From assembly GCA_964482555.1 (NCBI GenBank), contig CAYZXY010000010.1, positions 2,135-66,134 on the forward strand: a DNA stretch of 64,000 nt, read 5' to 3'. A model generated the notes under the pieces. It saw only the letters and a program-made list of their open reading frames with translations. It was not told the origin of the DNA and ran no database searches. A program made the position numbers and the translations under genes. Shown in pieces: positions 735 through 64,000 of this stretch. The stretch comes from an uncultured Pirellulales bacterium (lineage in GTDB: Bacteria; Planctomycetota; Phycisphaerae; Sedimentisphaerales; SM23-30). The first letter of the stretch is position 1, and every line of letters begins with the position of its first letter.

Positions 735-840
735 TATACCCAATGGGGTAGAAAGCTCCCAGTGGGGTCGGACGTAAGTGTTATATCGGCAGATAATTAC
801 GTTCAGACAAGACGGGTATTTGCCATCGGATCGAGTCTAT
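735..840 (+). repeat. R105 interspersed repeat, subtype A (diverged centre)
   Basis: Starts TATACCCAATGGGGTAGAAAGC, contains GATAATTACGTTCAGACAAGACGGGTATTTGCCATCGGATCGAGTCTA, and aligns end to end with the other copies. Confidence 0.8.
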
Positions 841-1000
841 TAAATCGCTGACCGCCAATAACCGATATGTATTATGGGGGATTTATGAGAGATATTTTTG
901 GTGATTGGAAAAATATTTGGTTTGCACTGGCAATTTATCCTGTGTTAGCTTATAGTAATGATCTTATATGTATCCAGCGGATACATAAGGTTTAATTGAA

Positions 1001-1109
1001 TAATACCCAGAGGGTATGACGATTCCCGCCATGGCCAGCCGTAAGTGATTTATCCGCAAAAGATTACGTTTGGTCGCAACGGGCGTTGACGCTCCGCGAG
1101 AGCGAATAT
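1001..1109 (+). repeat. R105 interspersed repeat, subtype B (3' module diverged)
   Basis: Reads TAATACCCAGAGGGTATGACGATTCCCGCCATGGCCAGCCGTAAG...AGATTACGTTTGG...GAGCGAATAT. The 5' two thirds match the B copies at 35139, 37147 and 58135. Confidence 0.7.
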
Positions 1110-1232
1110 GGAATTGTAATAAATATGATACTAGCCGTATTTTATGTGTTTTGCTTAAACAGGAACACGACTACATTAATCAGGATAACTCATGGCGAGT
1201 CTGTTTTAACCCCTAGTGGAGGACGATATTAA

Positions 1233-4200
1233 ATGACTATTTCAGTGAGTCCGGGCGCGACCGGGCAGGCCGTGGCCAAACGTGAGAAAGTAATGCAGAC
1301 AATCGACGGTAACACCGCGGCGGCTCATGTGGCATACGCTTTCAGTGATATAGCGGCGATATATCCGATTACGCCGTCGTCACCGATGGGTGAGATAGCC
1401 GATGACTGGGCGGCATACGGCCGTAAGAATATATTCGGTCAGGTTTTGCGAGTCAGTGAAATGCAGTCTGAAGCCGGTGCGGCCGGGGCTGTACACGGTT
1501 CACTGGCGGCAGGCGCTCTGACGACGACTTTTACCGCCAGCCAGGGGTTGTTACTGATGATACCGAACATGTACAAGATTGCCGGGGAGTTGATACCGTC
1601 GGTTTTCCATGTTTCCGCTCGAACGGTGGCGACGCACGCGTTGAGCATTTTTGGCGATCACAGCGATGTGATGGCGGTACGGCAGACGGGATTTGCCCTG
1701 ATGGCGGCGGGCTCGGTGCAGGAAACGATGGATCTGGCGACGGTGAGCCACCTGGCGACCCTGAAGGCAAAAGTGCCCTTTTTAAATTTCTTTGACGGAT
1801 TTCGAACCAGTCATGAAGTTCAGAAAGTGGAAATGATCGATTATGAGGTGATGGCGAGTCTGGTGGACTGGGAAGCCGTGGCGAATTTCCGTAAACGGGC
1901 GATGAACCCGGAAAATCCGCAATTGCGCGGCACGGCTCAGAATCCCGACACTTTCTTCCAGGCGCGGGAAGCGTGCAACCGTTTTTACGATGTGACGCCG
2001 GCCATTGTGGAAGAGACGATGAAGCAGGTAGGGGCGTTGATCGGTCGGGAATATAACCTGTTCGATTATTTCGGCGCTGCGGATGCGGATCGCGTTATCA
2101 TTCTGATGGGATCGGGTGCTGAGGCCGCGGAAGAGGCCGTCAACTATCTCAATTCGCAAGGCGAAAAAGTCGGTATGATCAAGGTTCGGCTCTATCGTCC
2201 ATTCTCGGCGCAGCATTTTCTGGCGTCACTGCCGGATACATGCAACAAGATCGCGGTTCTGGACCGCACCAAAGAGCCCGGCAGTCTGGGCGAACCTCTG
2301 TATCAGGATGTCTGCACCGTGTTCCAGGAAAAGAAAGAAACGCCGCTGATCGTTGGCGGACGATATGGACTGTCCAGCGCGGAATTTACGCCGTCGATGG
2401 TGAAGCAGGTCTATGAGAATCTCAATCGCAGCGAACCGAAGAACCACTTTACCGTGGGGATCGAAGACGATGTGACGATGACCTCGCTGCCGGTGTCGGA
2501 GCCGATAGACGCATCGCCGGAAGGTACGGTCCGCTGCAAATTCTGGGGGCTGGGCAGTGACGGCACTGTCGGGGCCAACAAAAGCGCCATCAAAATTATT
2601 GGCGATAACACCGACATGTACGCTCAGGGCTACTTTGCCTATGACAGTAAGAAATCGGGCGGTCTGACGGTGTCGCACCTGCGTTTTGGTCAGCAGCCGA
2701 TCCAGTCCACGTATCTGATCGATGTGGCAGATTATATCGCCTGCCATAACCGGGCGTATGTCTGGCAATACGATATTCTGGAAGGCATTCGTGAAGGCGG
2801 GACATTTGTCCTGAACTCGCCGTGGAACACCGTAGAAGAACTGGAAAAACATATTCCGGGTTCTCTTCAGCGGATTATCGCCGACAAGAAGCTGAAATTT
2901 TACAATATCGATGCAGTCAAGATCTCCGAAAGCGTGGGTCTTGGCCAGCGGATTAACATGATCATGCAGACGGCCTTTTTCAAGCTGGCTAATGTGATAC
3001 CTGTGGATGACGCCATTGGTTATCTCAAAGATGCTATCAAGAAGTCTTACGGCCGTAAAGGCGATAAGGTTGTGCAGATGAACTGGGACGGTGTAGATGC
3101 GGCCCTGGCGAATCTGGTGGAAATCGACTACCCCGTCATTTGGGCCCAGGCCGAGTTGGAAGAGCCGGTCAAACGGGATGAGCCGCAGTTTGTGACGGAG
3201 GTCATGCGGCCGATGCTGGCACAGCGGGGCATGTCGCTGCCGGTGAGCAAGTTCGCGGGTGATCTCGACGGCACCTATATCCGCTGCGGTTCAGACGGCA
3301 CCTATCCGACGGCCACGACGAAATTCGAAAAGCGCGGCATTGCGATTCATGTTCCTGAATGGATCAAGGAAAACTGCATCCAGTGTAATCAATGTTCTTA
3401 TGTTTGTCCGCATTCGGTCATTCGTCCGGTGCTGGCGGAAGAGAGCGAACTGAGCGGTGCTCCGGAGACGTTTACGACTATTGCGGCCAAAGGTCCGGGG
3501 ATGGAAAATTACCATTACCGCCTGCAGATCAGCGTGATGGATTGCACCGGCTGCGGCAATTGTGCCGATATCTGTCCGGCCAAGGAAAAAGCGCTGGTCA
3601 TGCAAGACATCGAAGAACAAAAGCAGATCGAAATACCCAATCAGGCATTTTCGGAAACCATCGCATTTCGTAATCCAATGAAGAAGGAAACCCTCAAGGG
3701 CAGTCAATTTGAGCAGTCGTTGTTTGAATACAATGGCGCGTGTCCGGGCTGCGGTGAAACGTCATATGTTAAACTGATTACCCAACTGGTCGGTGATCGC
3801 ATGGTCATAGCCAACGCCACGGGTTGTTCCAGTATTTATGGCGGGTCGGCTCCGAGTTGTCCTTATACCGTAAACGAGAAGGGGTATGGTCCCGCCTGGG
3901 CCAATTCGCTGTTTGAGGACAACGCGGAATTCGGTTACGGCATGAACCTGGCTTTCAGTCAGCGTCGTGAGCTGCTGGCGCAGAAAATCAACGAAGCGCT
4001 GGCCACGGATATTTCTTCTGAACTGAAAGACGCTTTTGGGGCCTGGCTGGAAAACATGATGGACGGCGATAAATCGCGTCAGATCGGTGAAACCATGCGG
4101 GAGATTCTCAGGAGTCAGTCTGAAGGCAGCAAACTGCTGGAAGAGATTCTGAGTATGGAAGACCTGTTTACCAAGAAGAGTGTCTGGATGTTCGGCGGTG

Positions 4201-4820
4201 ACGGCTGGGCTTATGATATCGGTTTTGGCGGTGTGGACCATGTCCTCGCCAGCGGTGAGGATGTCAATATTCTGGTAATGGATACCGAAGTTTATTCCAA
4301 CACCGGCGGGCAGAGCAGTAAGGCGACGCCGACCGGTTCGGTGGCCAAGTTCGCCGCTTCCGGTAAGAAGACACGTAAGAAAGACCTTGGCCTGATGGCG
4401 ATGAGCTATGGTTATGTTTATGTGGCATCTGTGGCCATGGGCGCCAACAAGAACCAGCTGCTCAAGGCTCTGGTCGAAGCGGAAAGCTATCCGGGCCCGT
4501 CGCTGATTCTGGCCTATTCGCCCTGCATCAATCACGGTATTGACATGGGCAAGAGTCAGGAAGAAGAAAAACGTGCCGTGGATAGCGGTTACTGGCTCCT
4601 GTATCGTTATAATCCCCTGCTCAAAGACGAGGGCAAGAGCCCGCTGGTCATGGATTCTAAAGAACCAACCCTTGATCTTGATGAGTTTTTGATGGGCGAA
4701 GTTCGCTATAAGACGCTGCTCAAGCAGTTCCCGGATGAAGCCCATCGGCTGCATGCCATGCTGAAAGATGAATACCTCAAGCGGTATCAGCTTTATCAGA
4801 AACTGGCCGAAGCCCTGTAA
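1233..4820 (+). CDS. nifJ: Pyruvate:ferredoxin (flavodoxin) oxidoreductase, single-chain NifJ/PFOR type
   Basis: The 1195-aa ORF has [31 protein letters not shown] at the N-terminus. It carries two 4Fe-4S motifs ([24 protein letters not shown]) and a TPP region [19 protein letters not shown] lies 9 nt upstream of the ATG at 1233; an alternative start is at 1293. Confidence 0.95.
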
Positions 4821-4844
4821 TCTCATCCGGCGGAGCCGGAAAAG

Positions 4845-63023: not shown

Positions 63024-63031
63024 CCGCCTGA

Positions 63032-63547
63032 CTATTCCAGGAAACCTTCCGGTTCGACTTCGGCCAGCCGTTTTTTCAAACGGTCGTAAATATTGGAGGG
63101 GATCAGTCGGGAGATATCGCCGCCATAGCGGCCGACTTCACGAATCAAAGTCGATGTGGTAAAGCCGTATTGTTCACTGGTCATGATAAAAACGGTTTCC
63201 AGTCCTCCCACGGCACGGTTGGTTAACGCCAACTGAAATTCATACTGAACATCGGTCAGGTTGCGCAGGCCCCGCAAAATAACCTGACACTGCTGCTTGC
63301 GGGCATAGTCTACCATCAGGCCGGTAAAGCGTTCGACTTTAACTTCCGGTATGTCTTTAAGAAGGTCCCGGATCATTTCTGTTCGATCTTTACCGGAGAA
63401 AAGATACTCTTTTTGCGGATTATCCCCTACGGCCACGACTAGTTCGTCCACAATTTTTACCCCGCGCTGAATAACGTCAAGATGTCCGTTGGTTATCGGG
63501 TCAAACGATCCGGGAAATATCGCTCGGACAAATTTGTTAGGCGTCAT
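63032..63547 (-). CDS. coaD: Phosphopantetheine adenylyltransferase
   Basis: AIFPGSFDPITNGHLDVIQRG...ILRGLRNLTDVQYEFQLALTNR. I prefer the start at 63547; the listed ORF extends to 63571. Confidence 0.93.
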   Translation of the reverse strand: MTPNKFVRAIFPGSFDPITNGHLDVIQRGVKIVDELVVAVGDNPQKEYLFSGKDRTEMIRDLLKDIPEVKVERFTGLMVDYARKQQCQVILRGLRNLTDVQYEFQLALTNRAVGGLETVFIMTSEQYGFTTSTLIREVGRYGGDISRLIPSNIYDRLKKRLAEVEPEGFLE

Positions 63548-63580
63548 GGCAACCTCGCATAATCGAACCAAAATCAGTTA

Positions 63581-63632
63581 TATACCCAACAGGTAACGGC
63601 ATAACGAAACCGACATTGCTGGCATGAGTATA
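63581..63632 (+). repeat. Possible internally deleted mini-copy of R105
   Basis: TATACCCAACAGGTAACGG...GCTGGCATGAGTATA has the R105 head (TATACCCAA..GGTA) and tail (GAGTATA) joined with about 50 nt of the centre missing. Confidence 0.4.
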
Positions 63633-63971
63633 TAATGAATTCGAGAGGTTGACAAATAGATTTCTGGAAGGGCCGACCTTAATGAAAGAAAAAATGCGGG
63701 CGGTCGCTGTGGCTGTGCAATGCTGTATATCTAAGCCCGCAATCATTATCCTTAAACAAAAAGGGGAAAAGGGGCCTCAGGGTGGGTAACATGATGTCGA
63801 AGCGAGTTTTGAAACAGCCCATTTTCCCCCACAAGAGAGAAAACTCATTACAATATATATTACGGTATCTGGGCAGTTTATGTATATCAGATGTTATCTG
63901 AAAAGGCCTCGGCAAAAAGCGGATTTATTTTGACCTGCGATTAATGAGGCCGATAATATAGCGAGATTATG

Positions 63972-64000
63972 TATACCCAAACGGGTTGAAAGCTCCCGGC
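63972..64000 (+). repeat. R105 subtype A, truncated by the window edge
   Basis: TATACCCAAACGGGTTGAAAGCTCCCGGC is identical in pattern to the first 29 nt of the other A copies. Confidence 0.85.

Follow-up and report, generated by a model that had tools for sequence, protein, structure and literature searches.

Bacterial miniature inverted-repeat transposable elements, or MITEs, are small (< ~500 bp) sequences without coding capacity, which carry terminal inverted repeats of 4-30 bp and are present in many interspersed, mostly intergenic copies; they are found as filled and empty alleles at orthologous sites, their transcripts are predicted to form stable stem-loops, they are AT-richer than their host, a target-site duplication flanks them, and the same host has a cognate insertion sequence or transposase with matching inverted repeats (PMC10969869, PMC3184786, PMC3049150). 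For RUP (Repeat Unit of Pneumococcus), extensive base pairing of the transcripts is predicted, and its orientation follows the coding bias of the genome (PMC3049150). The Correia elements of Neisseria (CREE/NEMIS) consist of 26-bp inverted repeats and a short core, measure ~100-150 bp, fall into core subtypes and are often co-transcribed with their neighbours, affecting processing and expression (PMC3049150, PMC10969869). ERIC/IRU elements and other small mobile sequences of enterobacteria are intergenic, ~100-130 bp long and transcribed in operons, with a reported effect on mRNA stability that depends on their orientation (PMC3049150, PMC2759123). The abundant, extragenic and hairpin-forming REP, BIME and REPIN sequences, which RAYT transposases mobilise, lie mainly between co-directional genes and are known in the PVC superphylum (PMC3733652). 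Our literature searches turned up no repeat family like the one described here for Sedimentisphaerales or other Planctomycetota, except for GTAG-tagged REPs. In this study, we describe R105, a repeat of ~105 nt that recurs in the spacers of a 64,000-nt stretch of DNA (the window) from an uncultured Sedimentisphaerales bacterium. We consider R105 to be probably a new MITE-like family of non-autonomous, non-coding elements of ~105 bp, unnamed but belonging to a familiar class.

The repeat had been pointed out in an earlier note made from the letters of the window alone, which listed 18 full copies, one copy cut by the window edge and four fragments. We aligned the listed copies, built from them a profile hidden Markov model (HMM) and a covariance model, the latter run without filters, and applied both to the window. 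All 18 full copies were recovered by the HMM (E = 5e-31 to 6e-17) and by the covariance model (69-115 bits), with starts within 0-14 nt of those listed; the edge-cut copy was found as well (E=2e-4), and the sequence blocks said to be shared are all present in the alignment of the 18 copies. A nineteenth full copy (55559-55661) had been missed. Concerning the fragments, that at 59729 is supported (E=1e-4) and that at 48345 is marginal (E=0.16), but those at 39332 and 63581 did not reach significance with the profile; the resemblance of 39332 to the 3' block of R105 is by eye only. The census by HMM and covariance model thus comprises 19 full-length copies (~105 nt), one edge-cut copy and one secure fragment (Table 1), degenerate and truncated copies among them. 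Mechanical repeat finding placed 13 members in a family of 106 nt and nine in an overlapping one of 100 nt, with copies of 100-106 nt.

Altogether the copies sum to 2,077 nt. This is 3.25% of the window, as the estimate of 3 percent had implied, and 18% of its non-coding DNA, which in turn makes up 17.7% of the window and contains R105 almost wholly. Coding overlap amounts to 18 of the 2,077 nt, all at the rplD end, where copy 33543-33648 covers the last codons and the stop; the claim that every copy is intergenic holds for nearly all of them with this exception. Start-to-start spacing ranges from 267 to 16,557 nt, both strands are occupied, and the copies cluster in pairs. A chance origin of R105 is excluded. 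Independent Logan short-read assemblies of SRR7048221, SRR7048222 and SRR7048224 carry the same copies at the same sites, so that R105 is not an assembly artefact. Several Logan contigs of the same organism break inside R105 copies; three independent ones end 27 nt into copy 35139-35244.

Mobility is indicated by comparison with related lineages. No R105 copy was found in ~129 kb of orthologous DNA from six of them (L112, L114, L116/L117, L125/L128, L126/L127 and L132), which bears out the view that the density in the window is unusual for such a region. Seven junctions that are filled in the window are short and empty in relatives, the spacer comparison leaving out L132, whose spacers are enlarged throughout. 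These are nusG-rplK (265 nt in the window, 32-75 nt in relatives), rplL-rpoB (275 nt and 106-130 nt), rpsS-rplV (146 nt and 48-53 nt), rplP-rpmC (147 nt and 28-35 nt; empty in L125, L126 and L129), map-infA (161 nt, and 47 nt in L126), rpsM-rpsK (208 nt, and 61 nt in L126) and rplD-rplW. At rplD-rplW the closest relative (L23 95% and L16 91% identical) has a spacer of 19 nt, which can be aligned to the 20 nt that follow 3' of the copy in the window. A seventh lineage, L129 (JGI 3300028895, Ga0309837_101649; L23 83% identical), is the second Sedimentisphaerales lineage that carries R105. Its copies at 4254-4359 and 5383-5488, both antisense to the ribosomal genes, lie at rpoC-rpsL (64.5 bits, E=3.5e-12) and rpsG-fusA (52.1 bits), and a third match at 5518-5605 is weak (13 bits). 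The window is empty at these two junctions (50 nt and 147 nt, respectively), and L129 is empty at rplD-rplW, rpsS-rplV and rplP-rpmC (23, 48 and 35 nt), all of them filled in the window. The filled sites differ from lineage to lineage and the distribution is patchy; such reciprocal presence and absence points to a mobile element rather than a conserved regulatory leader.

Searches beyond these lineages returned little. A scan of genome collections with the 15-mer TTTCAATCGGAACGA, which is too short to be specific, gave single chance matches in unrelated phyla, none fitting the profile. A metagenome scan with a 20-mer of the R105 3' end gave five chance matches, a weak negative as the genuine L129 copies lack that 20-mer. 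The contig ends of the short-read assemblies gave no conclusive sign of R105 copies outside the window.

The R105 unit is 105-106 nt long, begins with TATACCC and ends with GAGTATA; its 5' end reads TATACCCAAAGGGTATGAGAATTCCCG and its 3' end CGGGAATTTTCAATCGGAACGAGTATA. The two ends form imperfect terminal inverted repeats of ~27 bp (TATAC...GTATA). An in-register comparison without gaps gives 16 matches in 25 positions for the consensus of either subfamily (p<=1e-4 versus shuffles) and 14-17 matches in 27 for individual well-kept copies, including one of L129. In that L129 copy both ends show a matched change, from CCCG/CGGG to CCTG/CAGG. The matching positions make up the outermost 5-7 bp and a block of ~12 bp further in (TGAGAATTCCCG / CGGGAATTTTCA), the latter having initially been read as a long-range RNA helix and then reinterpreted as part of the in-register terminal repeats. 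The element as a whole is strongly asymmetric, the reverse strand scoring ~20 bits versus ~108 with the covariance model. Two subfamilies have both ends and the 3' half in common (ATAATTACGTT..GA.AAAACGGG.AATTTCAATCGGAACGAGTATA) and differ in their cores. Subfamily A comprises 11 copies, which are 57-92%, mostly 65-83%, identical; subfamily B comprises four tight copies (84-90% identical) plus divergent ones. The G+C content of the copies is 40-47% (54% in one divergent copy) versus ~50% for the window. A coding role for R105 was dismissed, since TGA at codon 6 of subfamily B closes the frame that stays open in A.

Set beside the definition of bacterial MITEs, R105 presents a non-coding unit of 105-106 nt, 19 full copies plus remnants in 64 kb of mostly intergenic positions, terminal inverted repeats that are imperfect in their middle third, orthologous sites filled either in the window (seven junctions) or in L129 (two), predicted stem-loops with fold z-scores of -1.6 to -5.3, and a G+C content that is mostly below that of the window. 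A transposase encoded elsewhere in the genome would recognise the ends of R105 and move the element in trans. Its target is probably AT-rich, and it may be the dinucleotide TA, as for RUP and Correia elements. Only insertions that spare genes would survive, whereby R105 would accumulate in spacers, including those of the ribosomal-protein and RNA-polymerase operons; copies inside operons would be co-transcribed and read through, and inserted copies would then decay roughly neutrally. Several points weigh against a MITE-like element. The middle third of each inverted repeat has no match to its partner. No flanking direct repeats beyond a possible TA were found around R105, and such a TA is indistinguishable from the conserved TATA termini. 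The empty sites of the relatives are too diverged to fix the R105 junction to the base, and no transposase or parent insertion sequence was found within the window. Finally, the orientation bias requires an additional factor, since random insertion is expected of a cut-and-paste element, and for this reason selection against antisense copies inside operons is favoured.

Concerning orientation, 17 copies in the window are on the plus strand and four on the minus strand. Relative to the local genes, 18 of the 21 are sense and three antisense. Three of the four minus-strand copies are within the only minus-strand gene block (hypergeometric p ~0.03), and the three antisense copies of the window (52596, 52894 and 60368) are each found between transcription units. 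Across the window, 15 of 16 bins have a positive GC skew. The orientation bias is real but not absolute, and one window with near-uniform skew cannot assign it to transcription or to replication.

Even though a mobile element of the MITE type accounts for the distribution, other explanations have to be weighed. The source is probably a metagenome-assembled contig, and R105 might be taken for an assembly or chance artefact or for ordinary conserved operon leaders. This is extremely improbable given the same copies in the same places in the Logan assemblies of three runs, profile E-values down to ~1e-31, unrelated flanking genes and a second lineage with copies at other junctions. An RNA module that functions in polycistronic mRNAs as a processing or stability signal, attenuator or translation-initiation spacer, and that is maintained by the host and not selfish, is in our view unlikely. 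It would agree with the sense excess and the coincidence of minus-strand copies with minus-strand genes, and with the position of several copies that end 1-15 nt before start codons (rpmC, queD, the GFO gene and the mcsA-like gene). On the other hand, the same operons in six relatives work without R105, both L129 copies are antisense to the operon, and the flanking genes are functionally unrelated. The folding evidence is likewise divided. Two hairpins are possible in subfamily A, a long one (GGGTAGAAAGCT...AGCTTTTTATCC around CCGG/CCGG) and a 3' hairpin (CGTTCCGA/TCGGAACG); in subfamily B the inner blocks of the inverted repeats pair instead. Owing to this difference in folding, RNAalifold over all copies yielded no shared structure. 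In a hand-built structure for all copies 76% of the cells are paired, and its modest covariation is reached by only 1 of 500 shuffles and is clearly above slid controls; yet subfamily B has a broken helix P2, and in A the long-range helix is weak. G-U pairs far outnumber A-C pairs in helices P2 and P4 (35:2 and 22:3), from which it follows that the fold belongs to the sense strand, but much of this excess is inherited from the consensus and does not reflect independent events. Paired columns change less than unpaired ones (12.5% versus 18.3%), but single-sided changes in paired positions of subfamily A preserved the pairing in 20 cases and disrupted it in 34, approximately the neutral expectation. 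Some copies fold far better than shuffles on the sense strand (z down to -5.3), but for several z is only -1.6, and in some the reverse strand folds equally well or better. A scan of positions 1-20 kb for sigma-70-type promoters and intrinsic terminators placed none at the internal helices of R105, its sole call within a copy being the 5'-terminal hairpin of copy 4845 on the opposite strand; the terminator scan allows loops of 3-8 bases only and could not detect the antisense 3' hairpin of R105. The subfamily A hairpin followed by UUUUUAU was not taken for a terminator, given its 5-nt bulge and an energy of only -7 to -12 kcal/mol. Taken together, ancestral R105 was structured, there is little sign of structural selection on individual copies, and the copies decay near-neutrally, roughly speaking, after insertion.

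Movement of R105 as single-stranded DNA by a Y1/HUH transposase (REPIN/RAYT-like or an IS200/IS605 derivative) would make the end hairpins recognition signals and the strand bias a result of insertion into the lagging-strand template. Elements derived from IS200/IS605 lack inverted termini; the subterminal hairpins at their two ends are related, and their 5' flank holds a conserved target of 4-5 nt. R105 does have hairpins near both ends (TACCC/GGGTA and the 3' hairpin named above), with G-T wobbles tolerated on one strand only, and a clear target duplication was not found. Moreover, the folding strand is the plus strand in 17 of 21 copies, that is the G-rich and presumably leading strand, and GTAG-tagged REPs together with RAYT transposases have been reported in Planctomycetes (PMC3733652). 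We nevertheless rate this route as quite unlikely. The two end hairpins are unrelated in sequence, the 5' flanks hold no conserved 4-5 nt target, and inverted termini are present, for which reasons an IS200/IS605-derived palindrome element was rejected; in-register terminal inverted repeats are typical of DDE transposon ends. GGGTAG, and hence GTAG, occurs in only 6 of 18 copies, with GTTG, TTAG or TTAA in others and GTAT in subfamily B, and in place of a 20-40 nt palindrome the unit is an asymmetric composite of 105 nt. As for the strand bias, the minus-strand copies coincide with minus-strand genes, and both L129 copies run against the ribosomal operon, hence presumably against the leading strand as well.

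For a MITE-like R105, the simplest cause of the sense excess would be, speculatively, that antisense copies have a polar effect inside operons and are selected against for it. Such polarity could come, again as a speculation, from the 3' hairpin and the UAAUUAUUU behind it in the antisense transcript. The effect of R105 on transcripts may hence depend on orientation: sense copies would act as tolerated or useful structured spacers that are read through, and antisense copies would be polar through the 3' hairpin and the sequence behind it. We put this forward as a tentative idea that is rather unlikely to be correct. If true, it would explain why sense copies occur in essential operons and antisense copies of the window only between transcription units, and R105 would be a mobile module rewiring operon architecture in this lineage.

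Table 1. Copies, fragments and a possible derivative of R105 in the window
Type	Position	Strand	Context and remarks	Score
Subfamily A	735-840	+	First of two upstream of the pyruvate:ferredoxin oxidoreductase (PFOR) gene 1233-4820 (Pfam)	HMM E=3.8e-27; 91.4 bits
Divergent, B-like	1002-1107	+	126 nt 5' of PFOR start codon	HMM E=5.5e-21; 69.2 bits
Subfamily A	4845-4950	+	Begins 24 nt past PFOR stop codon	HMM E=1.3e-29; 111.1 bits
Subfamily A	16986-17091	+	nusG-rplK spacer	97.7 bits
Subfamily A	19659-19763	+	rplL-rpoB spacer; termini TATACTC/GAGTATG pair (one G-U) in predicted fold	108.3 bits; fold z-score -5.3
B-like	33543-33648	+	Fills rplD-rplW spacer; first 10-16 nt unrecognisable; rplD stop 33558-33560 inside	HMM positions 11-105, E=6e-17; 74.7 bits
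Subfamily B	35139-35244	+	rpsS-rplV spacer, begins 1 nt past rpsS stop codon	99.2 bits
Subfamily B	37147-37251	+	rplP-rpmC spacer, ends 6 nt before rpmC start codon	94.4 bits
Subfamily A	44859-44964	+	map-infA spacer	105.8 bits
Subfamily A	45866-45970	+	rpsM-rpsK spacer	97 bits
Divergent	52059-52163	-	Between minus-strand STAS and HATPase genes (Pfam), same direction as both	77.6 bits
Subfamily A, divergent	52596-52701	+	Between two minus-strand transcription units, antisense	77.3 bits
Subfamily A	52894-52999	+	Same inter-operon spacer as copy 52596, antisense to flanking genes	102.7 bits
Subfamily A	55428-55532	-	Ends 7 nt 5' of start codon of minus-strand GFO/IDH/MocA oxidoreductase gene; 92% identical to copy 60475	102.8 bits
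Full-length, degenerate	55559-55661	-	Covariance model extends HMM match (near 55581-55660) to full length	HMM E=5.6e-11; covariance model 54 bits, E=1.2e-9
Subfamily B	58135-58240	+	82 nt upstream of AsmA-like gene; one Logan contig starts inside	105.8 bits
3' fragment, 42 nt	59728-59769	+	Ends 1 nt before queD start codon	HMM positions 65-106, E=1.1e-4
Subfamily B	60368-60473	-	Head-to-head with copy 60475 (1 nt apart), leader region upstream of mcsA-like gene; antisense to flanking genes	108.5 bits
Subfamily A	60475-60580	+	Ends 15 nt before start codon of mcsA-like gene	114.8 bits (best score)
Subfamily A	61132-61237	+	Between mcsA-like and mcsB-like genes (Pfam)	111.2 bits
Possible internally deleted derivative, 52 nt	63583-63634	+	Both termini kept (TATACCCAAC...GAGTATA), by eye only	No significant HMM or covariance score
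Cut by window edge, first 29 nt	63972-64000	+		HMM positions 1-29, E=2e-4

Two observations concern sites at or near copies. A near-consensus sigma-70-type promoter (TTGACG-17-TATAAT) is present at 60249-60277, ~90 nt 5' of the head-to-head pair and 320 nt 5' of the mcsA-like/mcsB-like genes; the head-to-head repeats would sit in the 5' leader there and would form a palindrome of ~212 nt. Just 3' of the rpoA stop, at 48340-48385, a short hairpin with a T-run behind it (TCCGGCAGGACCGGTTTTGAG...TTTTTATC) is similar to the hairpin at the centre of subfamily A (HMM E=0.16), and it could be a remnant copy of R105 or an ordinary terminator.

The window encodes tRNA-Thr, tuf, rpmG, tRNA-Trp, secE, nusG, rplKAJL, rpoBC and the str, S10, spc and alpha operons, followed by unrelated genes. 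The best named relatives of its NusG, L16 and L23 are Sedimentisphaerales metagenome-assembled genomes (Planctomycetota, Phycisphaerae), and identical proteins are found only on one NCBI contig (72,805 nt) and in the short-read assemblies SRR7048221, SRR7048222 and SRR7048224. Truncation of L4 by R105 was considered and rejected; the difference in length (201 versus 213-219 amino acids) is N-terminal and a matter of start-codon choice. The fusA-rpsJ spacer (31166-31848) is 683 nt long and has no tuf, no R105 copy and no convincing open reading frame; it measures 345-424 nt in relatives and, judged from this length in relatives too, may hold a conserved leader or a small RNA. In L132 (GCA_054037555.1, JBPLEO010000156.1, positions 1-17731) spacers of 100-390 nt are found at most str, S10 and spc junctions, with no R105 copy and no detectable repeat. 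At 45393-45449, just 5' of rpsM, a sequence weakly matches the alpha-operon ribosome-binding-site leader of Rfam (23 bits versus a gathering threshold of 38, E=0.34) and may be a diverged S4-binding leader. On the minus strand, 6535-13410 encodes a protein of 2,291 amino acids with choice-of-anchor D domains and an LEPR-XLL N-terminal motif, probably a large cell-surface protein.

R105 would add a MITE-like family from Phycisphaerae and leaves the current understanding of mobile elements unchanged. It illustrates that the S10, spc, alpha and rpoBC operons can accommodate structured insertions of ~105 nt between their cistrons, at junctions that normally measure 20-60 nt. In practice, the repeats fragment short-read assemblies of the host, can mislead gene callers into spurious open reading frames that run through copies, and could serve as a strain-typing marker. 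If one copy per 3 kb held genome-wide, R105 would be one of the densest bacterial MITE invasions known.

With regard to named repeat systems, the earlier assertion that R105 matches none of them stands for the collections searched. An Rfam search over the whole window gave only three tRNAs at the gathering threshold and nothing on R105 at permissive thresholds (E<=1); with single R105 copies as queries, Rfam gave only far sub-threshold chance matches. BLAST against plasmid and phage collections and IMG/VR scans gave no R105 match. A CRISPR array, in which short direct repeats alternate at regular intervals with unique spacers, was rejected on account of the irregular spacing and the copies on both strands. 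REPs are imperfect palindromes of 20-40 nt with a conserved, unpaired GTAG or CGTC tag at one end (PMC3733652), whereas R105 is a 105-nt composite with inverted termini and no conserved tag. An assignment to REP/REPIN was rejected for its long asymmetric unit, on which the two strands score so differently. ERIC elements resemble R105 in their occasional overlap with gene ends. However, ERIC is a long imperfect palindrome that is family-wide and often at orthologous sites, and R105 is patchy, at different sites in its two carrier lineages.

By analogy, R105 appears closest in design to Correia and RUP elements. The ends of Correia elements begin with TATAG and the elements duplicate TA. Their inverted repeats are near-perfect and the element is near-symmetric, whereas R105 is strongly asymmetric and its ends match only in the outer 5-7 bp and the inner block of ~12 bp; R105 has no sequence similarity to Correia elements, and there is no evidence of promoter or IHF sites in it. 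RUP also duplicates its TA target, and R105 ends in TATA...TATA. For RUP, a candidate parent insertion sequence has been identified and target duplication is proven, whereas neither was found for R105 in the window; RUP is AT-rich (27.5% G+C) and confined to streptococci. The comparison with R105 is by description, and a relationship in sequence is not expected. The likeness lies in the architecture, as RUP is a 107-bp MITE with subtypes, thought to be mobilised by IS630-Spn1. Both families show an orientation bias, which amounts to 81-86% for R105 versus ~61% for RUP.

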